From Escherichia coli (lineage in GTDB: Bacteria; Pseudomonadota; Gammaproteobacteria; Enterobacterales; Enterobacteriaceae): DNA of 64,000 bases. The notes below the pieces were generated by a model, which was not told the DNA's origin, ran no database searches, and was given only the letters and a program-made list of their open reading frames with translations. Shown here in pieces: positions 2,451-56,524 of this stretch; within the stretch, counting starts at the first letter, position 1, and every line of letters begins with the position of its first letter. The position numbers and the translations under genes are program-made. Where the stretch lies: the NCBI RefSeq assembly GCF_041886205.1, contig NZ_CP169029.1. One strand, given 5' to 3'.

Positions 2451-2624
2451 CAAAATTACCTTTACATGAAAAATAGACACAAATGCTGTGTCGGTTACCA
2501 GTACACCAATTGTGGTACGCTTTGTCCAGTGCAACTTTACTAAAAAGTGATAAAAGTCGCGTTATTTTTGATGTTACTTATTTTAGTTATTGATTTTAAA
2601 GAAGTTACTAAAACTTCATTTGTC

Positions 2625-3185
2625 TCAAAACTGAAAGCGCATCCAGGCAAAGTAAACATTGCCATTGTTGTAGGTACCCGGAATGTAGGTCATCTGAAAA
2701 GTCACTGGGCCATAACCCACGGAGGCCAATGGCAGTAGAACCGGGAGAGGGATGTAATTCCAGTTATCGCGTGCCGTTACGCCAGCGGTGAATCCCAGAC
2801 CTAAATGAAAATTTTCATCCGCCAGCGGTCGCCAGGTACTTTCCCATCCGTATCCGGCAATCGGTTCCCATTTGTTCCACGAGTCCTTAAATGCCATGGC
2901 ATACAGGCCATGCCAGTTTCCTTTTTCATCCCAACGCGACAGGCCAAAACCGCCACCCCACGGTCGCTCGTTATAGCGATCGGTTTTTTCTTTGTCGTAA
3001 GCGAAACGTGCATGCCAGGTGATGGCAGGAATATATAAATCATAATGTTCAGGCTGTTGCCAGGTTTGTGCAATATTTTCTCTAAACGTTGTCATCCACT
3101 CATCTGCGTTAGCAAAAACTTTACCAACGCTGATTAACTGAATAAAAACAAAGGAAAAGATAGCGACATATTTACTCACGTTCAT
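2625..3185 (-). CDS. pagP: lipid A palmitoyltransferase PagP (CrcA)
   Basis: 186-aa [33 protein letters not shown]... with signal peptide; start trimmed to ATG at 3185. Confidence 0.93.
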
Positions 3186-3670
3186 TTGTGACCATAAAAC
3201 ATTTATCAAAAATCTACTACTAGCATAGCAAAGCTACAATTAACATAACCTTAATAGCCCCAACATAAAGAATAATCTGAATAGCTGCTCTATTTATTTC
3301 CGCTTGTTTAAGTTAAATATTTCCGCGCATCGATTAAAGATGATGCGTCGTTTTCTGCGATGGGAATAGTCAAAAAAGAAAAACCAAGTCTTTTTTGATG
3401 ACAAAATGCAATCAAGGAAATATTTCTTTATTTTTTAATTGGATACAACAATCATCTTAACGAAGTATATAATATATATCGTCAACCCATGCTCATGGTA
3501 GATTATTTTCTGAGCACGCAACCGCAGCTAACACCATTGCGATTAACAAATTTGCATCAATCCCCCATCAATTTACACACATTATTATGTGATAATTGCC
3601 AACCGCTAAATATGCGTTTTGTTATCTACGTATAAAAACAGCAACTTCAATGTGTTAATGGCAGTTTTTC

Positions 3671-3684
3671 TTGATTTTAATCAG
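3671..3684. promoter_or_regulatory. FNR-like box (TTGAT-N4-ATCAG) upstream of dcuC
   Basis: ttgattttaatcag about 95 bp upstream of the dcuC ATG; dcuC is known to be anaerobically induced via FNR; motif match only. Confidence 0.4.
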
Positions 3685-3773
3685 CATTCATCGCCAATTT
3701 ATTGGGCATATTTTTTCCTTAAGTTTTAGGAATTTTTTATTATTTACTTTGGGGCCTGGAGACAGGAAAAATT

Positions 3774-5159
3774 ATGCTGACATTCATTGAACTCCTTATT
3801 GGGGTTGTGGTTATTGTGGGTGTAGCTCGCTACATCATTAAAGGGTATTCCGCCACTGGTGTGTTATTTGTCGGTGGCCTGTTATTGCTGATTATCAGTG
3901 CCATTATGGGGCACAAAGTGTTACCGTCCAGCCAGGCTTCAACAGGCTACAGCGCCACGGATATCGTTGAATACGTTAAAATATTGCTAATGAGCCGCGG
4001 CGGCGACCTCGGCATGATGATTATGATGCTGTGTGGCTTTGCCGCTTACATGACCCATATCGGCGCGAATGATATGGTGGTCAAGCTGGCGTCAAAACCA
4101 TTGCAGTATATTAACTCCCCTTACCTGCTGATGATTGCCGCCTATTTTGTTGCCTGTCTGATGTCACTGGCCGTCTCTTCCGCAACCGGTCTGGGTGTTT
4201 TGCTGATGGCAACCCTGTTTCCGGTGATGGTAAACGTTGGTATCAGTCGTGGGGCAGCAGCTGCCATTTGTGCCTCCCCGGCGGCGATTATTCTCGCACC
4301 GACTTCAGGGGATGTGGTGCTGGCGGCGCAAGCTTCCGAAATGTCACTGATTGACTTCGCCTTCAAAACGACGCTGCCGATCTCAATTGCTGCAATTATC
4401 GGCATGGCGATCGCCCACTTCTTCTGGCAACGTTATCTGGATAAAAAAGAGCACATCTCTCATGAAATGTTAGATGTCAGTGAAATCACCACCACTGCTC
4501 CTGCGTTTTATGCCATTTTGCCGTTCACGCCGATCATCGGCGTACTGATTTTTGACGGCAAATGGGGTCCGCAATTACACATCATCACTATTCTGGTGAT
4601 TTGTATGCTGATTGCCTCCATTCTGGAGTTCCTCCGCAGCTTTAATACCCAGAAAGTTTTCTCTGGTCTGGAAGTGGCTTATCGCGGTATGGCAGATGCA
4701 TTTGCTAACGTGGTGATGCTGCTGGTTGCCGCTGGGGTATTCGCTCAGGGGCTTAGCACCATCGGCTTTATTCAAAGTCTGATTTCTATCGCCACCTCGT
4801 TTGGTTCGGCGAGTATCATCCTGATGCTGGTATTGGTGATCCTGACAATGCTGGCGGCAGTCACGACCGGTTCAGGCAATGCGCCGTTTTATGCGTTTGT
4901 TGAGATGATCCCGAAACTGGCGCACTCTTCCGGCATTAACCCGGCGTATTTGACTATCCCGATGCTGCAGGCGTCAAACCTGGGCCGTACCCTTTCGCCC
5001 GTTTCTGGCGTAGTCGTTGCGGTTGCCGGGATGGCGAAGATCTCGCCGTTTGAAGTCGTAAAACGCACCTCGGTGCCGGTGCTTGTTGGTTTGGTGATTG
5101 TTATCGTTGCTACAGAGCTGATGGTGCCAGGAACGGCAGCAGCGGTCACAGGCAAGTAA
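3774..5159 (+). CDS. dcuC: anaerobic C4-dicarboxylate transporter DcuC
   Basis: 461-aa polytopic membrane ORF matching DcuC over full length. Confidence 0.95.
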   Translation: MLTFIELLIGVVVIVGVARYIIKGYSATGVLFVGGLLLLIISAIMGHKVLPSSQASTGYSATDIVEYVKILLMSRGGDLGMMIMMLCGFAAYMTHIGANDMVVKLASKPLQYINSPYLLMIAAYFVACLMSLAVSSATGLGVLLMATLFPVMVNVGISRGAAAAICASPAAIILAPTSGDVVLAAQASEMSLIDFAFKTTLPISIAAIIGMAIAHFFWQRYLDKKEHISHEMLDVSEITTTAPAFYAILPFTPIIGVLIFDGKWGPQLHIITILVICMLIASILEFLRSFNTQKVFSGLEVAYRGMADAFANVVMLLVAAGVFAQGLSTIGFIQSLISIATSFGSASIILMLVLVILTMLAAVTTGSGNAPFYAFVEMIPKLAHSSGINPAYLTIPMLQASNLGRTLSPVSGVVVAVAGMAKISPFEVVKRTSVPVLVGLVIVIVATELMVPGTAAAVTGK

Positions 5160-5167
5160 ATAGTAAT

Positions 5168-5194
5168 GCCGGAGGCAAGTTTCCTCCGGCTTTA
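5168..5194. terminator. bidirectional intrinsic terminator between dcuC and dpiA
   Basis: hairpin GCCGGAGG-caagttt-CCTCCGGC followed by TTTAT. Confidence 0.7.
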
Positions 5195-5199
5195 TCATG

Positions 5200-5880
5200 T
5201 CACCCACTGTGGTATATGCGTTGCGGTCTGCCAACTTTGCCGTGAGCAATTTCAGCAATAATCAGATGGCGGCTGGCGCAATATTCAAGATAACGCCTGG
5301 CAGTGGTGCGGCTGATGGTCAGTGCCTGCGCCACCGTTTCTGCCGTATGTTGCACACCAGGCTCTTTAAACAGTTTTCGCACCGCGTTTAGCGTCAAGGG
5401 GTCAATGCCGGTCGGCAGTTCGTCTTTAGGTTCACCGCGAGCATAGGCATTAAACATCTCATCAATTTGCTTCTGGCTGGCGCTATCAATACTTTCCAGC
5501 ATATGTTTACGCTGGCGGAAACGGGTTAGCGTTTGCCCCAGCCGTTCATAGGCAATGGGCTTAATGAGATAATCAAATACACCACAACGTACGGCTTCAG
5601 ACACCGTTTCCATATCGCTGGCTGCAGTGGTAAACACCACGTCGCCAGGATAATGCGCCTGCACCAGTTCATGCAGTAAATTAATCCCTCTACCGTCAGG
5701 AAGATAGTTATCGAGCAAGATTAGCCCCGGCTTAAAACGCTCGATCATCATTCGGGCCTGCGCCAGGTTTCCCGCCAGTAATATCTGACTGAATCCGGGA
5801 ATGTGACGAATATATTCCGCATGCATCTCTGCCAGCGGCGTTTCGTCCTCAACGATCAATAGGGTTAATGGAGCTGTCAT
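5200..5880 (-). CDS. dpiA: two-component response regulator DpiA (CitB)
   Basis: 226-aa ORF with receiver domain (LLIVEDE...) and C-terminal HTH; matches DpiA. Confidence 0.94.
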   Translation of the reverse strand: MTAPLTLLIVEDETPLAEMHAEYIRHIPGFSQILLAGNLAQARMMIERFKPGLILLDNYLPDGRGINLLHELVQAHYPGDVVFTTAASDMETVSEAVRCGVFDYLIKPIAYERLGQTLTRFRQRKHMLESIDSASQKQIDEMFNAYARGEPKDELPTGIDPLTLNAVRKLFKEPGVQHTAETVAQALTISRTTARRYLEYCASRHLIIAEIAHGKVGRPQRIYHSG

Positions 5881-7507
5881 TAGGTTTCACTTTCGGAATA
5901 TAGATTGAAAATAAGGTACCGCAGGGATCATTATCTTCGAGTGTGATAACACCACCGCAGCGCGTTACGTAGCTGGCAATCAAGTACAACCCAATGCCAT
6001 GTTCACCGGGCTCGTCAGCACGCGTACTGACCCCCTGCTCAAATATTTTGTCTCGTAGAGACTCTGGAACGCCGCAGCCCTGATCGGCGACTTCAATCAC
6101 CACATCATCGCCTTCATCGCTGAGGAATAATTCAACGATCTTGTTTCCTTCATCGCTACGCAGGCTGGCTTCGAAGGCGTTATCAAGTAAATTGCCCACA
6201 ATGGCGGCAAACTCGGTGCTATCCAGTCCTGGCGGCAGTTGCGAAAGCTGGCTACCGGGGACAATGATCATTTTTAGCCCCAGTTCCCGGGCGCGCTGCA
6301 CTTTACCAAAAAGCAGCCCCGCCACCTGGCGATCGGCAAACGCCTCGCGCAGGCTGTCAATAAGCTGTTGCTGGGCCTGAGACTCCCCCTGCACCATCGC
6401 CAGCACGCGATCATACTCTTTCATCTGCAACAGACCATTGAGCGTCGACATCCAATTGAGATGCTCGTGTCGCAATGTACGAAGGCTCTCAACGTATTGT
6501 TTTATTTGCGTCAGTTGCGCATTGAGGGTGGAAATTTCGTCTTTACTGCGAAAGCTGATAATGGCCCCCAGCAAATCATCACCTGAACGAATAGCTTCCC
6601 GATTGGCAATAACGCTCAGACCGTTAAAGTTAGCCACCACATCCTGACGTTTTTCATCAATCTGTTCGGTAAAGAAATCGGCGGGCCTGACCACTTCAGC
6701 AATGGGTTTACCCAACCATTGCCGTCCGGGGGAGCTCAGCCCCAGCATCTTTCTTGCGTTACGATTGATGGCGGTAATGTAACCATGCGGATCCACCGCA
6801 ATCAGCCCTTCATAAACCGAACTAAACAGCGCCTCTTGCTGACGGACCACGCGTGCGATTTGCTTTGGCTCCATGCCCATCATTTGCCGACGGATATGCG
6901 CTGCCAGGAACCACGACAGCAACATCAGAATCCCTAACAGCACGACAAACACACCTGCCATCGGTAATAAAAACTCAGCCCGCCAGCTATCGATTTTACT
7001 CACCAGGTAGCCAATCGACACCACGCCGATGACTTTTCCATCGTCATCAAAGATTGGCGTTTTGGCGCGCATCGCCATACCCATTGACCCTTTCCCGGTA
7101 ATGAAGTAGCTCTCCCCTTTCTCCAGCGCGCCCTGTTTGGTGAACTGCATAGGATAACCAATTTTCTCCGGATTAGGATGGTAAAGGCGGATCGAGTGCC
7201 GGTCCCCAATCACCACATAATCAAAATCGGTATCTCTTTGTAATTTGTTAGCGATGGTCGCCAGCCGTTTGTAGTCACGCGTTTTCACCGCAGAGATGAC
7301 ACTGTCATTGGAGGCAATAATTTTCGCCTGATTCATTGCCATGTCGCGTACATGAAGCGTTAAATAGTCCTCAAAACTGGCCGTAAAATATTGCGCCAGG
7401 GCTGCAATGACAAATATTGAGAACACCAGAATCAGCAAAAAGATACGCAGCGGAAATGCCAGTCTTTGGAAAAATGCAAACTGTTTATTCTCGTTAAGCT
7501 GCAACAT
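5849..7507 (-). CDS. dpiB: citrate-sensing histidine kinase DpiB (CitA)
   Basis: 552-aa ORF from MLQLNENKQFAFFQRLAFPL...; overlaps dpiA by 32 bp; ORF track start trimmed. Confidence 0.93.
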   Translation of the reverse strand: MLQLNENKQFAFFQRLAFPLRIFLLILVFSIFVIAALAQYFTASFEDYLTLHVRDMAMNQAKIIASNDSVISAVKTRDYKRLATIANKLQRDTDFDYVVIGDRHSIRLYHPNPEKIGYPMQFTKQGALEKGESYFITGKGSMGMAMRAKTPIFDDDGKVIGVVSIGYLVSKIDSWRAEFLLPMAGVFVVLLGILMLLSWFLAAHIRRQMMGMEPKQIARVVRQQEALFSSVYEGLIAVDPHGYITAINRNARKMLGLSSPGRQWLGKPIAEVVRPADFFTEQIDEKRQDVVANFNGLSVIANREAIRSGDDLLGAIISFRSKDEISTLNAQLTQIKQYVESLRTLRHEHLNWMSTLNGLLQMKEYDRVLAMVQGESQAQQQLIDSLREAFADRQVAGLLFGKVQRARELGLKMIIVPGSQLSQLPPGLDSTEFAAIVGNLLDNAFEASLRSDEGNKIVELFLSDEGDDVVIEVADQGCGVPESLRDKIFEQGVSTRADEPGEHGIGLYLIASYVTRCGGVITLEDNDPCGTLFSIYIPKVKPNDSSINPIDR

Positions 7508-46943: not shown

Positions 46944-49184
46944 ATGAACAAGAAGATTCATTCCCTGGCCTTGTTGGTCAATCTGGGGATTTATGGGGTA
47001 GCGCAGGCACAAGAGCCGACCGATACTCCTGTTTCACATGACGATACCATTGTCGTTACCGCCGCCGAGCAGAACTTACAGGCGCCTGGCGTTTCGACCA
47101 TCACCGCAGATGAAATCCGCAAAAACCCCGTTGCCCGCGATGTGTCGGAGATCATCCGTACCATGCCAGGCGTTAACCTGACCGGTAACTCCACCAGTGG
47201 TCAGCGTGGGAATAACCGACAGATTGATATTCGCGGTATGGGTCCGGAAAACACGCTGATTTTGATTGACGGCAAACCGGTCAGCAGCCGTAACTCGGTG
47301 CGTCAGGGCTGGCGTGGCGAGCGCGATACCCGTGGTGATACTTCCTGGGTGCCGCCTGAAATGATTGAACGTATTGAAGTTCTGCGTGGTCCGGCAGCAG
47401 CGCGTTATGGCAACGGCGCGGCGGGTGGCGTAGTTAACATCATTACCAAAAAAGGCAGCGGTGAGTGGCACGGTTCCTGGGACGCTTATTTCAATGCGCC
47501 AGAACATAAAGAGGAAGGTGCCACTAAACGCACCAACTTCAGCCTGACCGGTCCGCTGGGCGACGAATTCAGCTTCCGCTTGTATGGCAACCTCGACAAA
47601 ACCCAGGCTGACGCGTGGGATATCAACCAGGGCCATCAGTCCGCGCGTGCTGGAACGTATGCCACGACGTTACCAGCCGGGCGCGAAGGGGTGATCAACA
47701 AAGATATTAATGGTGTCATTCGTTGGGATTTCGCACCTATGCAGTCACTCGAACTGGAAGCGGGCTACAGCCGCCAAGGTAACCTGTATGCGGGCGATAC
47801 CCAGAACACCAATTCTGACGCTTACACTCGCTCGAAATATGGCGATGAAACCAACCGCCTGTATCGCCAGAACTACGCGCTGACCTGGAACGGTGGCTGG
47901 GATAACGGCGTGACCACCAGCAACTGGGTGCAGTACGAACACACCCGTAACTCGCGTATTCCGGAAGGTCTGGCAGGCGGTACCGAAGGGAAATTTAACG
48001 AAAAAGCGACACAGGATTTCGTCGATATCGATCTCGATGACGTGATGCTGCACAGCGAAGTTAACCTGCCGATTGATTTCCTCGTTAACCAGACGCTGAC
48101 GCTGGGTACGGAGTGGAATCAGCAGCGGATGAAGGACTTAAGTTCCAACACCCAGGCGCTGACCGGAACGAATACCGGTGGCGCTATTGATGGCGTGAGT
48201 GCCACCGACCGTAGCCCGTATTCAAAAGCAGAAATTTTCTCGCTGTTTGCCGAAAACAACATGGAGCTGACTGACAGCACCATCGTAACGCCGGGGCTGC
48301 GTTTCGATCATCACAGTATTGTCGGCAATAACTGGAGCCCGGCGCTCAACATATCGCAAGGTTTAGGCGATGACTTCACGCTGAAAATGGGCATTGCCCG
48401 CGCCTATAAAGCGCCGAGCCTGTACCAGACTAACCCGAACTACATTCTCTACAGTAAAGGTCAGGGCTGCTATGCCAGCGCGGGCGGCTGCTATCTGCAA
48501 GGTAACGATGACCTGAAAGCAGAAACCAGCATCAACAAAGAGATTGGTCTGGAGTTCAAGCGCGACGGCTGGCTGGCGGGCGTCACCTGGTTCCGTAACG
48601 ATTATCGCAATAAGATTGAAGCGGGCTATGTGGCTGTAGGGCAAAACGCAGTCGGCACCGATCTCTATCAGTGGGATAACGTGCCGAAAGCGGTGGTTGA
48701 AGGTCTGGAAGGATCGTTAAACGTACCGGTTAGCGAAACGGTGATGTGGACTAATAACATCACTTATATGCTGAAGAGTGAAAACAAAACCACGGGCGAC
48801 CGTTTGTCGATCATCCCGGAGTATACGTTGAACTCAACGCTGAGCTGGCAGGCACGGGAAGATTTGTCGATGCAAACGACCTTCACCTGGTACGGCAAGC
48901 AGCAGCCGAAGAAGTACAACTATAAAGGTCAGCCAGCAGTTGGCCCGGAAACCAAAGAAATCAGTCCGTACAGCATTGTTGGCCTGAGCGCGACCTGGGA
49001 TGTGACGAAGAACGTCAGTCTGATCGGCGGCGTGGACAACCTGTTCGACAAACGTTTGTGGCGTGCGGGTAATGCCCAGACCACGGGCGATTTGGCAGGA
49101 GCCAACTATATCGCGGGTGCCGGGGCGTATACCTATAACGAGCCGGGACGTACGTGGTACATGAGCGTTAATACTCACTTCTGA
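46944..49184 (+). CDS. fepA: TonB-dependent ferric enterobactin outer membrane receptor FepA
   Basis: 746-aa ORF MNKKIHSLALLVNLGIYGVAQAQEPTD... ending in C-terminal F; 77-codon upstream extension in ORF track rejected. Confidence 0.95.
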   Translation: MNKKIHSLALLVNLGIYGVAQAQEPTDTPVSHDDTIVVTAAEQNLQAPGVSTITADEIRKNPVARDVSEIIRTMPGVNLTGNSTSGQRGNNRQIDIRGMGPENTLILIDGKPVSSRNSVRQGWRGERDTRGDTSWVPPEMIERIEVLRGPAAARYGNGAAGGVVNIITKKGSGEWHGSWDAYFNAPEHKEEGATKRTNFSLTGPLGDEFSFRLYGNLDKTQADAWDINQGHQSARAGTYATTLPAGREGVINKDINGVIRWDFAPMQSLELEAGYSRQGNLYAGDTQNTNSDAYTRSKYGDETNRLYRQNYALTWNGGWDNGVTTSNWVQYEHTRNSRIPEGLAGGTEGKFNEKATQDFVDIDLDDVMLHSEVNLPIDFLVNQTLTLGTEWNQQRMKDLSSNTQALTGTNTGGAIDGVSATDRSPYSKAEIFSLFAENNMELTDSTIVTPGLRFDHHSIVGNNWSPALNISQGLGDDFTLKMGIARAYKAPSLYQTNPNYILYSKGQGCYASAGGCYLQGNDDLKAETSINKEIGLEFKRDGWLAGVTWFRNDYRNKIEAGYVAVGQNAVGTDLYQWDNVPKAVVEGLEGSLNVPVSETVMWTNNITYMLKSENKTTGDRLSIIPEYTLNSTLSWQAREDLSMQTTFTWYGKQQPKKYNYKGQPAVGPETKEISPYSIVGLSATWDVTKNVSLIGGVDNLFDKRLWRAGNAQTTGDLAGANYIAGAGAYTYNEPGRTWYMSVNTHF

Positions 49185-49223
49185 TGCTAACGTCAGATTG
49201 TTGACAAAGTGCGCGTCGTTCAT

Positions 49224-49324
49224 GCCGGATGCGGCGTGAACGCCTTATCAGGCCTACAAAAATCTTGTCAATTCAATATATTGCAGGATCACGTAGGCCT
49301 GATAAGCGTAGCGCATCAGGCAGT
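49224..49324. repeat. BIME: two REP elements in inverted orientation between fepA and entD
   Basis: GCCGGATGCGGCGTGAACGCCTTATCAGGCCTAC at 49224-49257 and GTAGGCCTGATAAGCGTAGCGCATCAGGCAG at 49294-49324. Confidence 0.85.
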
Positions 49325-49358
49325 TTTGCGTTTGTCATCAGTCTCTAATATGGTCGAC

Positions 49359-49979
49359 ATGAAAACTACGCATACCACCCTCCCCTTTGCCGGAAATACG
49401 CTGCATTTTGTTGAGTTCGATCCGGCGAGTTTTTGTGAGCAGGATTTACTCTGGCTGCCACACTACGCGCAACTGCAACACGCTGGACGGAAGCGCAAAG
49501 CCGAACATTTAGCCGGACGAGTCGCCGCCGTTCATGCTTTACGAGAGTATGGTTTGAAAGGCACACCTGCAATTGGTCGTCATCGCCAGCCTGTCTGGCC
49601 TGCGGAGGTATACGGCAGTATTAGCCACTGCGGGGCTACGGCATTGGCCGTGGTATCCCGTCAACCGATTGGTATTGATATCGAAGAAATTTTTTCTGCG
49701 CAAACAGCGACCGAATTGACAGACAACATTATTACACCAGCAGAACACGAGCGACTCGCAGACTGCGGTTTAGCCTTTTCTCTGGCGCTGACACTGGCAT
49801 TTTCCGCCAAAGAGAGCGCATTTAAGGCAAGTGAGATCCAAACTGATGCAGGTTTTCTGGACTATCAGATAATTAGCTGGAATAAACAGCAGGTCATCAT
49901 TCATCGTGAGAATGAGATATTTGCTGTGCACTGGCAGATAAAAGAGAAAATAGTCATAACTCTGTGCCAACACGATTAA
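49359..49979 (+). CDS. entD: enterobactin synthase phosphopantetheinyl transferase EntD
   Basis: 206-aa ORF MKTTHTTLPFAGNTLHFVEFDPASF...; ATG confirmed at 49359. Confidence 0.92.
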   Translation: MKTTHTTLPFAGNTLHFVEFDPASFCEQDLLWLPHYAQLQHAGRKRKAEHLAGRVAAVHALREYGLKGTPAIGRHRQPVWPAEVYGSISHCGATALAVVSRQPIGIDIEEIFSAQTATELTDNIITPAEHERLADCGLAFSLALTLAFSAKESAFKASEIQTDAGFLDYQIISWNKQQVIIHRENEIFAVHWQIKEKIVITLCQHD

Positions 49980-49998
49980 TTGACCACATCTGGTACGA

Positions 49999-50089
49999 TT
50001 CGCCCGCAGCCATCACTGACCGCGGGCGAAAGTGTAAAGCAGGTGCCTTACCACCCTGACCTGACAACCGGATATGCGGGGATTACTCC
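49999..50089 (-). repeat. hok mRNA 3'-end segment, copy 1 (contains hairpin CGCCCGC-N14-GCGGGCG), cut off from hokE by IS186-A
   Basis: 91-bp block about 98% identical to 51849-51941; ends in the IS186 target duplication. Confidence 0.7.
50080..50089. repeat. 10-bp target-site duplication of IS186-A (GGATTACTCC; second copy 51429-51438)
   Basis: identical decamer directly abutting both IS186-A ends. Confidence 0.85.
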
Positions 50090-51428
50090 CATAAGCGCTA
50101 ACTTAAGGGTTGAACCATCTGAAGAATGCGACGCCTCGGTGCCTCGTTAAGACGATGCCTCGCGTTCTTCAATTGCGTTTTGTAGGCTGTCAGGGATACT
50201 GTCCCACGAATGGCCACCTGTAAGCTCCAGATGACCATTTTTGTTATTCTCCACAACGAGTTAGTTCTTCTTTTCGGATCCGGCACTTCTGGGGGGGAAA
50301 TCCAGCGATGGCTGGATTATGTCGTCAATTAAAAATGCGGCGAGTAGATTAGCAAATATCCACGCTTTCGCGAGTTCAGGTTCCTTTGCACGCAAAGCAT
50401 CCAGGTGCAGCAAACTTTTGAGCCGCTTAAAAGCCAGTTCAATTTGCCATCGCAGACGGTAACAATCAGCCACTTGCTCTGCTGAATATTCATCTTCCGG
50501 TAATGATGTTAGCAATAGCACATGGCCCGCTGCTTCCAGCGTTTCCGCCTGAACTACTCGTCCTTTTCGACGATTCTCGCTGAGCAGTCGGGTTTTACTG
50601 ATTAATGCTTTTTCGGGAGGAAGTGATACGGCAATGAGACGTGCCGGAAAGGGAGCTCCGGCTTTTTTATTACCTGAATTGCCTATCATTACAGTGGTTT
50701 CACCGTTCTTACCGCAATCCAGCCCGCGCAGAAAACCCATCATGTCAAAGCGCATTCCTTCTGCAGTTAACCAGCGCAATCCTCGCCAGTGAACCCGGAC
50801 GATATAATCAGCTTCTCCAAAAGCAAGTGAGCGGATACATTCGGGACGCGAACCGAATCCCCGGTCAGCAATGCGTATCTCGTCTGCCGTTTGCGCAAAT
50901 CGGTCCAGCCGTTCAGCGTCTCTGCTGTCGGTTAGCTCAAAATCAGTGAACTGACAGGTATGAGGATCATATCCCATATGTAGTCGCCATTCAGCGCTGC
51001 CGCCCCCGGGCGCACTGATTGCTGTTCCATCGACAAGACGCAATCTCTTTCCGCTTGTACAACCCGTAACTGCGGCGCGTACAGCAAGTGTTTGTGCGGC
51101 AAGTATGCCAAACCAGTCGGCGGCATTCCGCAGCCGCTTCAGGAGAGCCACGTCAGATAATGTTGCAACGTCATGGAGCTGAGCCCATGCAGTGACTTCA
51201 CGTAATGACATCCCCCCGGGGCCGTAAGCCAGCCCCAGACGTAGCAGAGTTGCAGCATCACGAATTTCGCGGCGGCGGGTTAGAGCCCCGGCATTACGTG
51301 CCGAAGTATCCAGTTCTTCGGGCTTACCAATATGGGCCAGAATTGCTGACCAGTTATCGTGAGAGTAATTCATCGGCACGTTAAATCATATCAGGCGTAA
51401 TACCACAACCCTTAAGTTAGCGCTTATG
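50090..51428 (-). mobile_element. IS186 (IS4 family) copy A
   Basis: 1339 bp; perfect 23-bp terminal inverted repeats CATAAGCGCTAACTTAAGGGTTG at 50090-50112 and 51406-51428; encodes InsL. Confidence 0.95.
50261..51373 (-). CDS. insL: IS186 transposase InsL
   Basis: 370-aa ORF MNYSHDNWSAILAHIGKPEELDTSARNAG... Confidence 0.95.
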   Translation of the reverse strand: MNYSHDNWSAILAHIGKPEELDTSARNAGALTRRREIRDAATLLRLGLAYGPGGMSLREVTAWAQLHDVATLSDVALLKRLRNAADWFGILAAQTLAVRAAVTGCTSGKRLRLVDGTAISAPGGGSAEWRLHMGYDPHTCQFTDFELTDSRDAERLDRFAQTADEIRIADRGFGSRPECIRSLAFGEADYIVRVHWRGLRWLTAEGMRFDMMGFLRGLDCGKNGETTVMIGNSGNKKAGAPFPARLIAVSLPPEKALISKTRLLSENRRKGRVVQAETLEAAGHVLLLTSLPEDEYSAEQVADCYRLRWQIELAFKRLKSLLHLDALRAKEPELAKAWIFANLLAAFLIDDIIQPSLDFPPRSAGSEKKN

Positions 51429-51449
51429 GGATTACTCCCCGCACAGCGG

Positions 51450-51602
51450 CTACTTCTTCGGTTCGTAAGCGAGAACAGCCTTAAACTCAATATTACGTTC
51501 CTTTACCGTAAACTCACACAACGAGTCTCCGACCAGAAGCGTAAATCCCAGCACCGTCAAACACAGCACTATGACTGCCACAAGGGCATATTTCGTCAGC
51601 AT
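51450..51602 (-). CDS. hokE: Hok-family type I toxin HokE (an in-frame upstream mok extension runs to 51701)
   Basis: 50-aa [53 protein letters not shown]; ATG at 51602. Confidence 0.9.
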
Positions 51603-51848
51603 GTTTATATTGCCTCCATGCGAAGAAGGGACTACCATCCGAGTTGTTGAGGTTCGGAGTGGCAGCCCCAGGATTGATAGAAATTTCTCCTGGGGCTTCA
51701 TCTTTCCAGACCTCAGAGTTAACCTGAAACCGGAAAGCTTCAGGCACCCGCCGTTATCTTACCCTTCCTTAGCAAAATAGCTGTTTATTTATACAGTGAG
51801 TCCTGTTTCGGACTTCTGTCAGCAAAACTCATCATTGCTCTTAAAACG

Positions 51849-51941
51849 AAATCGCCCGCAGCCATCACTGACCGCGGGCGAAAGTGTAAAGCAGGTGCCT
51901 TACCATCCTGACCTGACAACCGGATATGCGGGGATTGCTCC
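51849..51941 (-). repeat. hok mRNA 3'-end segment, copy 2, cut off from the second hok copy by IS186-B
   Basis: near-identical to 49999-50089 (2 SNPs). Confidence 0.7.
51932..51941. repeat. 10-bp target-site duplication of IS186-B (GGATTGCTCC; second copy 53281-53290)
   Basis: identical decamer abutting both ends of IS186-B; differs by one base from the IS186-A duplication. Confidence 0.85.
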
Positions 51942-53280
51942 CATAAGCGCTAACTTAAGGGTTGTGGTATTACGCCTGATATGATTTAACGTGCCGATGA
52001 ATTACTCTCACGATAACTGGTCAGCAATTCTGGCCCATATTGGTAAGCCCGAAGAACTGGATACTTCGGCACGTAATGCCGGGGCTCTAACCCGCCGCCG
52101 CGAAATTCGTGATGCTGCAACTCTGCTACGTCTGGGGCTGGCTTACGGCCCCGGGGGGATGTCATTACGTGAAGTCACTGCATGGGCTCAGCTCCATGAC
52201 GTTGCAACATTATCTGACGTGGCTCTCCTGAAGCGGCTGCGGAATGCCGCCGACTGGTTTGGCATACTTGCCGCACAAACACTTGCTGTACGCGCCGCAG
52301 TTACGGGTTGTACAAGCGGAAAGAGATTGCGTCTTGTCGATGGAACAGCAATCAGTGCGCCCGGGGGCGGCAGCGCTGAATGGCGACTACATATGGGATA
52401 TGATCCTCATACCTGTCAGTTCACTGATTTTGAGCTAACCGACAGCAGAGACGCTGAACGGCTGGACCGATTTGCGCAAACGGCAGACGAGATACGCATT
52501 GCTGACCGGGGATTCGGTTCGCGTCCCGAATGTATCCGCTCACTTGCTTTTGGAGAAGCTGATTATATCGTCCGGGTTCACTGGCGAGGATTGCGCTGGT
52601 TAACTGCAGAAGGAATGCGCTTTGACATGATGGGTTTTCTGCGCGGGCTGGATTGCGGTAAGAACGGTGAAACCACTGTAATGATAGGCAATTCAGGTAA
52701 TAAAAAAGCCGGAGCTCCCTTTCCGGCACGTCTCATTGCCGTATCACTTCCTCCCGAAAAAGCATTAATCAGTAAAACCCGACTGCTCAGCGAGAATCGT
52801 CGAAAAGGACGAGTAGTTCAGGCGGAAACGCTGGAAGCAGCGGGCCATGTGCTATTGCTAACATCATTACCGGAAGATGAATATTCAGCAGAGCAAGTGG
52901 CTGATTGTTACCGTCTGCGATGGCAAATTGAACTGGCTTTTAAGCGGCTCAAAAGTTTGCTGCACCTGGATGCTTTGCGTGCAAAGGAACCTGAACTCGC
53001 GAAAGCGTGGATATTTGCTAATCTACTCGCCGCATTTTTAATTGACGACATAATCCAGCCATCGCTGGATTTCCCCCCCAGAAGTGCCGGATCCGAAAAG
53101 AAGAACTAACTCGTTGTGGAGAATAACAAAAATGGTCATCTGGAGCTTACAGGTGGCCATTCGTGGGACAGTATCCCTGACAGCCTACAAAACGCAATTG
53201 AAGAACGCGAGGCATCGTCTTAACGAGGCACCGAGGCGTCGCATTCTTCAGATGGTTCAACCCTTAAGTTAGCGCTTATG
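51942..53280 (+). mobile_element. IS186 (IS4 family) copy B, inverted relative to copy A
   Basis: 1339 bp; same 23-bp terminal inverted repeats at 51942-51964 and 53258-53280; encoded protein identical to copy A. Confidence 0.95.
51997..53109 (+). CDS. insL: IS186 transposase InsL
   Basis: 370-aa ORF identical to the copy-A transposase. Confidence 0.95.
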   Translation: MNYSHDNWSAILAHIGKPEELDTSARNAGALTRRREIRDAATLLRLGLAYGPGGMSLREVTAWAQLHDVATLSDVALLKRLRNAADWFGILAAQTLAVRAAVTGCTSGKRLRLVDGTAISAPGGGSAEWRLHMGYDPHTCQFTDFELTDSRDAERLDRFAQTADEIRIADRGFGSRPECIRSLAFGEADYIVRVHWRGLRWLTAEGMRFDMMGFLRGLDCGKNGETTVMIGNSGNKKAGAPFPARLIAVSLPPEKALISKTRLLSENRRKGRVVQAETLEAAGHVLLLTSLPEDEYSAEQVADCYRLRWQIELAFKRLKSLLHLDALRAKEPELAKAWIFANLLAAFLIDDIIQPSLDFPPRSAGSEKKN

Positions 53281-53301
53281 GGATTGCTCCCCGCACAACG
53301 G

Positions 53302-53454
53302 CTACTTCTTCGGTTCGTAAGCGAGAACAGCCTTAAACTCAATATTACGTTCCTTCACCGTAAACTCACACAGCGAGTCGCCGACCAGAAGCGTAAATCC
53401 CAGCACCGTTAAACACAGTACTATGACTGCCGCAAGGGCATATTTCGTCAGCAT
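53302..53454 (-). CDS. second Hok-family toxin paralog (ORF intact; mok leader interrupted by IS150)
   Basis: 50-aa [53 protein letters not shown], one substitution versus HokE. Confidence 0.75.
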
Positions 53455-53551
53455 GTTTATATTGCCTCCATGCGAAGAAGGGACTACCATCCAAATTGTT
53501 CAGGTTTGGGTAGGTAGCCCTAGGGTGTACTGACCCCAAAAAGTTGGACAG

Positions 53552-54403
53552 TTAAACACGAGGCATATAGGTCTGATTCCGATATTCAATTGGAGTCAGA
53601 CCTTTTAATTTCAGGCTAATTCTTCTGCTGTTGTAGTATTCAATATATTCCGTAACAGCATCCTTCAGTTCGCTTATATTACTGAACTCATCAAGATAAA
53701 AACACTCCGACTTTAAGGTTCCAAAGAAACACTCCACCACAGCATTATCCAGACAATTGCCTTTTCTGGACATGCTTTGTTTAATACCATGTTCTTTAAG
53801 GATATTTTGATATCTTCTCATACGATACTGCCATCCCTGGTCAGAGTGCAGAACAGGATGCTCGTGAGGATTAAGCTTTTTGAATGCCTGATCGAGCATA
53901 TTCTCAACCATGTTCATCACTGGTCTTTCCGAAAGGCTGTAAGAAATAACTTCATTGTTGAAGAGATCTATTACTGGAGACAAATACAGCTTGCGCCCAT
54001 TGACTGCAAATTCAGTAACATCGGTAACCCACTTCTCGTTTGGCCGCGTAGCCTTGAAATCTCTTTGGAGAACATTGGGGGCGGTTTGCCCTACCTCTCT
54101 TCTGTAAGAGCGGTATCGCTTGACCTTAATCGCTGCCTTAAGTGAGAGGGTTCCCATCAGGCGCTGAACAGCTTTATGGTTAATCTGTTTCCCTTCTCGA
54201 TGAAGAGACAGCGTTACCCTACGGTATCCGTATCGGCCTCTATTCTCATGATAAATCTCACCAATACGCTTTTTAACGCCCGCATACTTGTCAGGCTTGC
54301 TGAGAGCCTTTAGATGGTAATAAAACGTACTGCGCGGTATCTCCGCAGCCCTGAGAAGCTCATCAAGAGGATAAAACTGCCTTAGCTCGTTGAGTACTTT
54401 CAC
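53552..54403 (-). CDS. insK: IS150 transposase OrfB (InsB; catalytic DDE domain)
   Basis: 283-aa [33 protein letters not shown]... Confidence 0.9.
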
Positions 54404-54921
54404 TTTTTCGTGGGATGAGCTAAGGCTTTCAGCTTTTTTAGATACACAAGCCGCGTTTCAAGAAATCGAACTTGCCTTTCAAGATCCTCAATGCGTCGGT
54501 CTTTTGACAGCTCCAATGCTGATGCCGCTTTTTCTGGATCAACTGATATTGCAATGTTTCTTTTGGTGCCAATCTTGAGCGCGCGTAAACCAGCTTCTCC
54601 GCGATCTTCATAAACCTTCAGCCACCTGGCTACAGAACCACTACCAGCAAGCATAAAGTGAGCAGCAGCCTGATTAAGGGACATGTGCTGCTCGATCACA
54701 GCTTTCACGACCTTAATACGCAACTCTGGATCAGCACTAACGCCTTTAGGTTTGGGAATTAAACCTTTTTCTCCATGTTTTTCATAGAGGGCAACCCATG
54801 TCCTGACCTGGGTTCGGGGGACACCAAAACGTGCCGAGATGATCCTGTAACCATCATCAGTTGTGAAGTAGTGATTCACGACTTCAAGGCGCTTTTCAAA
54901 AGGGTATTTTGGCTTTGACAT
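54400..54921 (-). CDS. insJ: IS150 OrfA (InsA; HTH DNA-binding)
   Basis: 173-aa ORF MSKPKYPFEKRLEVVNHYFTTDDGYRIISARF... Confidence 0.9.
   Translation of the reverse strand: MSKPKYPFEKRLEVVNHYFTTDDGYRIISARFGVPRTQVRTWVALYEKHGEKGLIPKPKGVSADPELRIKVVKAVIEQHMSLNQAAAHFMLAGSGSVARWLKVYEDRGEAGLRALKIGTKRNIAISVDPEKAASALELSKDRRIEDLERQVRFLETRLVYLKKLKALAHPTKK
54433..54439 (-). promoter_or_regulatory. programmed -1 ribosomal frameshift heptamer (A AAA AAG) joining IS150 orfA to orfB
   Basis: CTAAAAAAG near the end of orfA in the orfA/orfB overlap, as described for IS3-family elements. Confidence 0.6.
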
Positions 54922-55331
54922 ATTAGGGGCTATTCCATTTCATCGTCCAACAAAATGGGTGCAGTACAGGGTTGATAGAAATATCTCCTGGGGCTTCATC
55001 TTTCCAGACCTCAGAGTAAACCTGAAACCGGAAAGCTTCAGGCACCCGCCGTTATCTTACCCTTCCTCAACAAAATAGCTGTTTATTTATACAGTAAATC
55101 CTGTTTCGGACTTCTCACTCCTCATTTAATCAACTGAAGCTGAACCCGTTTTTTCTGCATGCCTCAATCGTCAAAATTCTTCGCCGCCAGCCAGCTAAGA
55201 CGCAACTGGTCACATTGCAAAAGTAGCCAAATTACTTCAGTCACCATCACCAAAAAAAAGAAACATTCCAGAACTTCCGCATCTCGCCCAGCCGCTCCCA
55301 CTTCTATACTGAATGGAAAACGCCAACATAA

Positions 55332-56459
<1,128 letters not shown>

Positions 56460-56524
56460 GCCGGGAATTGCCTTACAGAAGAATATCCCTGACAATGGTG
56501 TTTTAACTTACATTTAACAATGTT

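Follow-up and report, generated by a model that had tools for sequence, protein, structure and literature searches.

Tandem hokE-type toxin loci split by IS186 and IS150 between entD and ybdK in Escherichia coli

Organization of the entD–ybdK interval

The window analysed here, a stretch of 64,000 nucleotides of Escherichia coli DNA, carries two Hok/Gef ORFs in direct tandem on the minus strand of the 5.4 kb intergenic interval between entD and ybdK, and both of the hokE-type loci to which they belong are split by insertion sequences (ISs) (Table 1). An earlier note on this DNA had described a tandem pair of diverged loci broken up in this way, a description that the sequence bears out; each of the elements that it listed (ORFs, repeats and IS ends) is present where it had been placed or within a few bases of it. 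The two ORFs have 50 codons each, and their products are identical at 49 of 50 residues. The sole difference is residue 8, which is valine in copy A and alanine in copy B; K-12 HokE also has alanine at this position. The homologous blocks of the two loci are 94–98% identical. Direct repeats pair 50000–50112 with 51852–51964 (98%), 51406–51672 with 53258–53524 (94%) and 51669–51817 with 54967–55115 (95%), and in two of these repeat families the copies lie exactly 1852 bp apart.

Both copies are Hok/Gef toxin ORFs of ~50 amino acids. For copy A, the match to Pfam PF01848 (E = 2.5e-8) spans model positions 1–42 of 42. Against the NCBIfam HokA and Hok-family models, both copies reach E-values of 1e-10 to 1e-13 with scores below the curated cut-offs; Hok membership is therefore based on Pfam, on the hokE names given by PGAP in related genomes and on homology to K-12. 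The ORF corresponding to copy A is annotated as hokE (WP_000956465.1) in MB53 and IAI1, and that corresponding to copy B as hokE (WP_000956455.1) in VE-T9 and MB53. Each copy also has an in-frame mok-type ORF of 62 codons that opens at an upstream ATG (at 51638 in copy A); mokC and mokA of MG1655 are annotated in the same way, as in-frame extensions ending at the hok stop codon. The intact state of both toxin ORFs counts against inactivation.

Table 1. Features of the entD–ybdK interval and its boundary genes, in window coordinates
Feature	Position	Strand	Basis
entD, left boundary gene	49359–49979	+	ORF; corresponding gene of L001 annotated as entD by PGAP
Detached 3' end of copy A hok mRNA: fbi (AGGCACC), terminator-type hairpin, left duplication (50080–50089)	49999–50089	-	98% repeat with 51852–51964; fold
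IS186a, 1339 bp, transposase ORF 50261–51379	50090–51428	-	100% identical to MG1655 IS186B
Right target duplication of IS186a, GGATTACTCC	51429–51438		Repeat of 50080–50089
Intact hok ORF of copy A (50 aa, V8 variant)	51450–51602	-	Pfam HOK_GEF PF01848
Intact copy A hok 5' leader, with tac, its hairpins and the start region of mok	51603–51749	-	Rfam RF01794; aligns with MG1655 hokE leader
Sok-A antisense RNA gene	51646–51705	+	Position-for-position alignment with annotated MG1655 sokE
Promoter and upstream region of copy A (as far as 51817), then 31-bp A–B linker (51818–51848)	51750–51848	-	Repeat with copy B; population count of junction 51780–51880
Detached 3' end of copy B hok mRNA: fbi plus T-run terminator hairpin; left duplication at 51932–51941	51849–51941	-	Repeat; fold
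IS186b, 1339 bp, inverted relative to IS186a	51942–53280	+ (transposase)	Exact reverse complement of IS186a
Right target duplication of IS186b, GGATTGCTCC	53281–53290		Repeat of 51932–51941
hok copy B, 50 aa, A8 variant, ORF intact; in-frame mok-type ORF to 53490	53302–53454	-	ORF; family profiles; K-12 homology
Sok-B stub, first 28 nt still on promoter	53498–53525	+	Homology with copy A and MG1655 sokE
IS150, 1443 bp, orfA 54400–54921, orfB 53552–54403	53526–54968	-	99.2% identical to MG1655 IS150
Copy B hok promoter region and mRNA nt 1–79, detached (5' end near 55047)	54969–55115	-	95% repeat; RF01794 match
ybdK, right boundary gene	55341–56459	+	ORF and annotation

Insertion sequences

The two IS186 copies conform to this IS4-family element in length, ends, transposase, duplication and GC-rich target; the transposase scores 133 bits against NF033592 (cut-off 115). 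Both have identical perfect 23-bp terminal repeats (CATAAGCGCTAACTTAAGGGTTG), with the 10-bp duplication inside GGGGATTRCTCCCC, and for IS186a the original target was GGGGATTACTCCCC. In both loci the site is a GGGG-N6-CCCC hairpin 11 nt past the hok stop codon, so placed that the insertion detaches the block of fbi and terminator from the hok ORF. The same motif, GGGG-N6-CCCC, is reportedly the IS186 target consensus of SaiSree et al. 2001. The mutual inversion of the two copies is an addition to the description in the earlier note.

IS150 has the features of this IS3-family element, which is 1443 bp long and is known by imperfect terminal repeats beginning TGTACTG, two ORFs linked through a frameshift and a 3-bp duplication. 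Its ends are TGTACTGACCCC and TGTACTGCACCC, it is flanked by GGG target duplications at 53523–53525 and 54969–54971, and its orfB scores 347 bits against NF033516 (cut-off 160). It differs from MG1655 IS150 by 11 bases, and PGAP annotates the matching elements in related genomes with a programmed frameshift. Since IS150 and the hok gene of copy B have the same orientation, read-through transcription of mok/hok of copy B without a matching Sok is possible in principle.

Leaders, Sok genes and transcript ends

The leader of copy A scores 80.2 bits against Rfam RF01794 (sok) at 51594–51749 (gathering score 59) and aligns base for base with sokE/hokE of MG1655. An antisense Sok gene overlapping the hok leader is present in copy A, but no longer in copy B, where IS150 splits the leader at mRNA nucleotide 79 and cuts the Sok-B gene after 28 nt. 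In copy B the sok match is split: a weak part covers 53446–53536, and the 3' half of another, at 54892–55047, extends into IS150. The putative Sok promoters consist of TTGCCT (51610–51615) and TACCAT (51633–51638) for Sok-A, and of TTGCCT (53462–53467) and TACCAT (53485–53490) for Sok-B; a simple promoter scan reported neither the hok nor the sok promoters at its thresholds.

Pairing of the mRNA ends by tac and fbi has been described for hok mRNA (PMC9841398). When the ISs were removed in silico, nucleotides 1–8 (GGGUGCCU) of both transcripts were predicted to pair with nucleotides 353–360 in the 3' blocks, and the IS186 target to lie in a hairpin at nucleotides 306–328. This end pairing was found in the IS-removed reconstructions only; in the actual sequence 1339 bp separate the ORF from the fbi block. 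A terminator-like site at 51881–51852 is a further feature of the copy B 3' block. Judged by the predicted fold, the 3'-end blocks are real functional pieces of the hok mRNAs. Copy A is in the state of K-12 hokE, with ORF, leader and Sok intact and the end-pairing element gone, and copy B is fully dismantled with its toxin ORF still intact.

Distribution among complete genomes

Frequencies were obtained by searching 5,426 complete genomes. The tandem junction (51780–51880) occurs in 2,098 of them, distant lineages included. An entD-adjacent IS186 is present in minus orientation in 1,646 genomes and in plus orientation in 225, the copy B IS186 in plus orientation in 73 and in minus orientation in 101, and the IS150 junction at the exact site of the window in 551. 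The earlier note had suggested that the extra elements may be strain-specific. This is right only in part. The full combination is rare: the same layout was found only in QA-1986 83 (99.0% identity) and in ES7, which gives a full-length single-piece match of 98.9% with an identical list of annotated features, and one further genome has a rearranged layout. Taken singly, the elements are more widespread: the second hok copy is present in ~39% of complete genomes, IS150 at this place in ~10% and the copy B IS186 in ~3%. The expectation of one hokE and one IS186 in K-12 MG1655 proved right, with only sokE-hokE-IS186B at the site. Neither of the refuting results named in the earlier note was obtained: K-12 is not identical across the interval, and two hok copies and two IS186 copies both recur in independent complete assemblies.

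Simpler states are also found. IAI1 and O157:H7 have tandem hokE without ISs, and a tandem with two IS186 copies occurs in MB53 and CP55_Sichuan; elsewhere, the IS186 orientation combinations A+B+, A-B+ and A+B- are all seen. Edited versions of the window match relatives of the same haplotype at 99.88% identity or better: ET201 corresponds to the window minus all ISs, 6EVA to the window minus both IS186 copies, MB53 to the window minus IS150, VE-T9 to the window with 50090–51941 deleted, and wlxctx60 to the window with 51439–53290 deleted, save that its IS186 is interrupted by an IS1. The relatives with the highest flank identity (VE-T9, XJ5.2, LHM10-1 and CP52E) have a single unit. VE-T9 combines an A-type left target duplication with a B-type right one, and its paralogue-specific bases switch exactly at IS186, a pattern that would be expected of a deletion from a tandem.

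Interpretation of the locus

It is very probable, in our judgement, that the interval is the two-copy form of the chromosomal hokE locus, in which two paralogous hok/mok/sok modules arranged head to tail have been dismantled by three IS insertions. The ancestral state would be an IS-free tandem of these modules, followed by gain of ISs at hot spots and lastly by loss of one unit through recombination between repeats; the order of these steps is one that we infer. IS186 would have entered the same hairpin in each copy, once per orientation, and so parted the toxin ORF from fbi and the terminator. In an intact module these elements pair back with the 5' end, which stabilizes the full-length mRNA and prevents its translation. 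The entry of IS150 into the leader of copy B would have detached the hok promoter and tac region and cut Sok-B. By analogy with the R1 hok/sok mechanism and with reports on K-12 gef/hokC carrying IS186, both loci are probably no longer killer modules.

Short-read assemblers are prone to errors in structures like this one, with its exact 1852-bp spacing and identical IS186 copies, and the strain of the window is itself absent from the complete-genome collection; a single hokE-IS186 unit might thus have been falsely expanded to two through the repeated IS186/hok sequence. Nevertheless, the units differ by 2–6%, the target duplications match within each unit but not between the units (ATTACT versus ATTGCT), and inverted IS186 copies are not a product of a collapsed or expanded repeat. 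Furthermore, the independent complete assemblies of QA-1986 83 and ES7 have the same layout, and those of MB53 and CP55_Sichuan reproduce the two-IS186 tandem. Near-identical relatives with simpler states (no IS in ET201, IS150 only in 6EVA, both IS186 copies only in MB53), together with two one-unit deletion forms, make such an artefact extremely improbable. Another alternative is a recent, strain-specific duplication or import; the second unit would then be a product of unequal crossing-over, or of recombination of a K-12-type with a VE-T9-type allele. The single-unit state of the closest flank relatives would fit such an event, as would the K-12 orientation of IS186 in copy A and the VE-T9 orientation plus IS150 in copy B. 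We consider it highly unlikely, however, because the A–B junction is kept in distant lineages and in IS-free tandems, the tandem is found on the same haplotype in ET201 and 6EVA, and the mixed duplications and base switch of VE-T9 fit deletion from a tandem. The view of the earlier note that the copies are old paralogues, neither recently duplicated nor artefactual, is supported: they appear old because they have diverged by 2–6% and share their junction with 2,098 of 5,426 genomes, including the IS-free IAI1 and O157:H7.

Identical inverted IS186 copies flank hok copy A and the 3' block of copy B, as they would if both elements and the 503 bp between them had moved in as one composite transposon carrying hok. 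Such a transposon would have one duplication, at its outer ends only. Here, a separate 10-bp duplication brackets each IS186, no single shared duplication is present at the outer flanks, removal of the ISs restores the exact IS-free tandem of ET201 and IAI1, and other genomes have all the orientation combinations listed above; the candidate was rejected and retains next to no probability. A different question is whether the loci are still active modules that the ISs have rewired, with copy A checked by Sok-A and copy B read through from IS150 without Sok. The hok ORF and the in-frame mok-type ORF are unbroken in each copy, copy A retains its leader and Sok, the IS150 ORFs are directed toward the hok gene of copy B, and K-12 gef/hokC with IS186 is reportedly still transcribed and regulated by antisense RNA (PMC3562002). 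This reading nonetheless seems rather unlikely to us: fbi, which is needed for a stable, inert mRNA pool, is 1.3 kb away in both copies, IS-free chromosomal hok loci reportedly show no post-segregational killing (bioRxiv 10.1101/2025.08.07.668861, citing earlier work), and selection against an unchecked hok in copy B is to be expected, yet 551 genomes carry the IS150 junction. The dismantled two-copy hokE locus is the reading that we prefer, and its structure is an ordinary stage of IS-driven decay in a known type I toxin–antitoxin locus.

Comparison with known systems

The window loci share with hok/sok of plasmid R1, a type I system of post-segregational killing, the Hok/Gef toxin, an antisense Sok in the leader and, as predicted for the IS-removed transcripts, the tac/fbi pairing, and they have a mok-type frame that overlaps hok. 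They differ in being chromosomal, tandem and IS-split. Islets of 2–6 copies hold ~10% of Hok genes (bioRxiv 10.1101/2025.08.07.668861).

The sokE-hokE-IS186B locus of MG1655 (b4835, b4415, IS186B) lies at the same chromosomal site, between ybdK and entD. Its IS186B and that of window copy A are 100% identical and agree in target hairpin, ATTACT duplication and orientation relative to hok. However, MG1655 has one unit only, without IS150, and its hokE carries many paralogue-specific bases of the window B type. At K-12 hokC (gef)/sokC, IS186A occupies the homologous GGGGATCACTCCCC site (GGGG-N6-CCCC) just past the hok stop codon, in opposite orientation to hok, as in window copy B; this is another paralogue, in single copy at another chromosomal site. 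The published view is that the IS186 behind gef/hokC disrupts both fbi and the processing of the mRNA (PMC3562002). K-12 hokA has IS150 in its leader at mRNA nucleotide ~76, compared with nucleotide 79 in window copy B, and in both cases the element breaks sok and cuts mok/hok off from its promoter and 5' leader. The hokA insertion differs in its opposite orientation, in belonging to a distant paralogue and in that a clean 3-bp duplication is not visible.

E. coli B (BL21 lineage, NEBExpress) has the order entD-IS186(-)-hokE(A8)-IS150-ybdK, and its IS150 lies at the leader position that it occupies in the window. This arrangement resembles the window minus one unit, and wlxctx60 is the corresponding form on the window haplotype. 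The E. coli B locus differs in its single unit and in its IS150, which is interrupted by IS1, partly deleted and of the canonical K-12 sequence, unlike the variant in the window. In the tandem IS-split hokE structure, variants that are common and already known in E. coli are thus combined in a way that is rare.

Architecture of the hokE tandem

Between entD and ybdK the window carries two diverged hokE units, the entD-proximal copy A and the ybdK-proximal copy B, together with three insertion sequences (ISs). This structure is a rare combination of common, already known events at a known locus, and no new kind of system is revealed. The earlier note had described a tandem pair of hok loci broken up by ISs, a description borne out by sequence reading of 49000-56500, ORF listing and repeat finding, which links the two units through three direct-repeat families. 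The note did not mention the orientation of the IS186 pair and is corrected here: IS186a in copy A and IS186b in copy B are exact reverse complements, inverted relative to each other. IS186a matches MG1655 IS186B at 100% identity. The original IS186 target in both copies was GGGGATTRCTCCCC, 11 nt past the hok stop codon. The features are collected in the table, with those of the neighbouring fepA-entD intergenic region.

Features of the entD-ybdK interval and its neighbourhood
Feature	Position	Strand	Remarks
Hok ORF, copy A	51450-51602	-	50 codons; residue 8 is V
Hok ORF, copy B	53302-53454	-	50 codons; residue 8 is A, the sole difference
3' block repeats	50000-50112 / 51852-51964		98% identical
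ORF and proximal leader repeats	51406-51672 / 53258-53524		94% identical
Distal leader and upstream region repeats	51669-51817 / 54967-55115		95% identical
IS186a	50090-51428	transposase -	GGATTACTCC at both flanks
IS186b	51942-53280	transposase +	GGATTGCTCC at both flanks
IS150	53526-54968		1443 bp; GGG duplication each side; 11 positions differ from K-12 IS150
Sok-A	51646-51705	+	by alignment with MG1655
Copy A 3' hairpin	49999-50030		identical to copy B hairpin; followed by AATCGTACC, no T-run
Copy B 3' hairpin	51849-51881		terminator-type; followed by T-run (TTTCGTTTTA)
69-codon ORF	51571-51780	+	opposite copy A leader
REP-type repeats, fepA-entD	49194-49300		
Rfam ES036 match	49259-49300		within the REP repeats; 39.8 bits, above gathering score 37.6
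Rfam naRNA4 match	49213-49254		fepA-entD region; sub-threshold

Identity of toxin, Sok and transposase genes

The copy A ORF matches Pfam HOK_GEF, and both Hok ORFs match NCBIfam Hok models with scores below the curated cut-offs; in close relatives, PGAP calls hokE at the matching positions. Of the IS genes, the IS186 transposase passes the NCBIfam IS4 cut-off and IS150 orfB the IS3 cut-off. The copy A leader matches the Rfam sok family RF01794 at 80 bits (gathering score 59), and in copy B the match is split into two fragments, one on each side of IS150. Since the strand of these matches is hok-sense, what they mark is the stretch of leader shared by hok and sok. For Sok-A we infer TTGCCT-17 nt-TACCAT as the putative promoter; the homologous Sok-B start would be at 53498, and IS150 cuts 28 nt further on. 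At the thresholds used, a promoter scan gave neither a hok nor a sok promoter, and it gave a terminator-like site for the 3' block (the detached mRNA end) of copy B only. Given the missing T-run, the entD-proximal unit may be without a canonical intrinsic terminator, IS-free strains included.

An ORF such as the one opposite the copy A leader is often called a 'hypothetical protein' by PGAP in related genomes, frequently with a frameshift flag, on the strand opposite the hok leader. At one compared locus (L005, 3385-3654) it is annotated across the leader of hokB, the copy B gene, and IS150 interrupts the corresponding site in the window. The ORF, which overlaps the sok/hok leader, is apparently an artefact of annotation.

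Frequency among complete genomes

The collection comprised 5,426 complete E. coli genomes, with the window's own strain outside it. A 252-bp junction query was unfit for counting because the search joins non-colinear pieces, so that single-copy, IS-free genomes reached 87% coverage; the counts used a 101-bp junction query and three-part queries of 251-253 bp, for which 80% coverage needs all three parts. The whole interval is covered to at least 80% in only three genomes: QA-1986 83, which has the window's layout at 99.0% identity; ES7, with a full-length single-piece match at 98.9% and the same list of annotated features; and FCI17. The FCI17 locus (2501-7474) has the two hokE units, the IS186 pair and IS150 in a different order, and on its left lies an SDR oxidoreductase gene rather than entD, which together imply a larger IS-mediated rearrangement.

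The A-B tandem junction itself is present in 2,098 genomes, and two hokE units thus occupy this site in ~39% of the collection. The K-12 state, a single hokE with IS186, is a reduced one. An IS186 next to the entD-proximal 3' block occurs in minus orientation in 1,646 of the 5,426 genomes, a count probably inflated by K-12 derivatives, several of which are among the sampled matches, and in plus orientation in 225; for the 3' block of copy B, counted together with the junction, the figures are 73 (plus) and 101 (minus). The junction of the hokB leader with IS150 was found in 551/5,426. The suggestion that the second hok copy, the second IS186 and IS150 may be strain-specific thus fails for the second copy and IS150, and only the full combination is rare. 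Tandems without ISs occur in IAI1 and O157:H7, and CEA601S has an IS-free single copy. Tandems with two IS186 copies, signed here by IS orientation, are A+B+ in TUM18780, A-B+ in CP55_Sichuan and MB53, and A+B- in O104:H4. Tandem hok 'islets' have been described previously (bioRxiv 10.1101/2025.08.07.668861), and for E. coli W more than one hokE copy has been reported (PMC3032704).

Relatives of the window and origin of the layout

The 10-kb stretch on the left side of the locus is essentially identical in only six complete genomes; in MB53 the identity is 99.4%. We compared relatives with edited versions of the window, and each was colinear at an identity of at least 99.88%. ET201 has the window's sequence without any IS; across the wider 10-kb flank its identity falls to 98.4%, but the hok locus is of the same haplotype. 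6EVA corresponds to the window minus both IS186 copies, MB53 to the window minus IS150, VE-T9 to the window with 50090-51941 deleted, and wlxctx60 to the window with 51439-53290 deleted, except for an IS1 interrupting its IS186. In VE-T9 the IS186 duplication is A-type (ATTACT) on the left and B-type (ATTGCT) on the right, and the paralogue-specific bases switch exactly at IS186, the pattern expected of a deletion from a tandem. Single-unit relatives likewise have left ATTACT and right ATTGCT halves (compare window 50080-50112 and 51932-51964). Such unequal halves point to a crossover in 27 identical bases formed by the duplication end and the IS186 terminal repeat, or alternatively inside the IS186 of an A+B+ ancestor such as TUM18780. 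These sequence comparisons identify the window as a probable intermediate, with the intact tandem on one side and IS-laden alleles of one unit on the other. On this one haplotype, IS150 and IS186 are found in all four presence-absence combinations, which requires repeated hot-spot insertion or within-locus recombination.

Inversions, deletions and errors of assembly are likely to arise at the 1852-bp direct repeat and at the IS186 pair, whose two copies are identical and inverted. It is very unlikely that the layout is an assembly artefact, since relatives on the same haplotype match edited versions of the window, the units have diverged and each IS186 has separate matching duplications. A recent duplication as the source of the second unit is argued against by the 2-6% divergence between units and by the wide conservation of the A-B junction; the reading of the units as old paralogues in the earlier note is thus upheld. 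A composite transposon was ruled out because each IS has its own duplication and IS removal restores the IS-free tandem. In-place inversion between the inverted IS186 copies was also ruled out, as it would put the two 3' blocks back to back.

Predicted effect of the insertions

Transcripts were rebuilt with the ISs removed in silico and then folded. In each copy the predicted fold joins nt 1-8 (GGGUGCCU) to nt 353-360 of the detached 3' block, which corresponds to the tac/fbi pairing of mRNA ends known from hok (PMC9841398), and the IS186 target forms a small GC hairpin at nt 306-328. Each toxin ORF is thus split by IS186 from its own fbi element and terminator. IS150, at nt 79 of the copy B leader, leaves mokB/hokB without promoter and tac region. 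The state of copy A is that of K-12 hokE, and copy B is dismantled at both ends.

Both loci would then no longer function as killer modules. A module that is still active, or has been rewired, would fit the two intact hok ORFs and the orientation of IS150 toward hokB, but we consider it improbable. At K-12 gef/hokC, a downstream IS186 is believed to disrupt both fbi and the processing of the mRNA, although the locus is still transcribed (PMC3562002). In a passage of one preprint citing earlier work, post-segregational killing is reportedly not mediated by IS-free chromosomal hok loci (bioRxiv 10.1101/2025.08.07.668861).

Possible insertion hot spots

Many IS186 insertions are found in the 3' hairpin, in both copies and both orientations. 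SaiSree et al. reportedly gave the GC-rich GGGG-N6-CCCC as the IS186 target consensus in 2001. IS150 occupies exactly one nucleotide position, with orientation and GGG duplication unchanged, in the window (53523-53526, 54968-54971), QA-1986 83 (L001), VE-T9 (L003) and loci L008 and L015, despite different flanking bases. This site is shared by loci of the window type, the IAI1 type (QA-1986 83) and E. coli B, and is occupied by two IS150 sequence variants, 11 differences apart; IS-free counterparts exist on both the window's haplotype and the IAI1-type haplotype. The recurrence suggests that IS150 inserted repeatedly and independently at a hot spot, or alternatively that gene conversion has acted between IS150 copies. 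Taken with the IS186 hot spot and the parallel in K-12 hokA, a different paralogue, it would mean an undescribed IS150 preference for the second hok-leader hairpin; this possible hot spot is the sole lead with some novelty. The hokE tandem could be a recurrent IS trap, with the single 'hokE' alleles of laboratory strains as deletion products of similar IS-laden tandems, a proposal that we regard as somewhat doubtful.

The window represents a rare state in which both units are kept and three ISs have already been inserted. Because IS-free, IS150-only, both-IS186 and one-unit deletion forms occur in near-identical genomes, the decay of the toxin locus can be followed directly, step by step. The relevance is mainly to annotation and comparative genomics.

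Comparison with K-12 and E. coli B

In MG1655 the order is ybdK-sokE-hokE-IS186B-entD, as the earlier note had expected, with one unit and without IS150, whereas the window has two units and IS150. K-12 hokE was ruled out as the equivalent of copy A, because its protein and many diagnostic bases are B-type. MG1655 hokC has IS186A at the homologous GGGGATCACTCCCC site. Pedersen and Gerdes reportedly noted in 1999 that K-12 hokA, hokC and hokE are adjoined by IS150 or IS186. The IS150 of MG1655 hokA (L010, 3634-5076) lies at leader nt ~76, compared with nt 79 in copy B, at most 3 nt from the homologous position in this distant paralogue, but it points the other way and shows no clean 3-bp duplication at the insertion; an identical site and orientation were thus ruled out. 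E. coli B (NEBExpress) has the order entD-IS186(-)-hokE-IS150::IS1-ybdK, and experimental evolution of E. coli B has yielded IS-mediated deletions with hokE as the starting point (PMC4557228). Given the K-12 and E. coli B loci, no type of event seen in the window is without precedent among laboratory strains.
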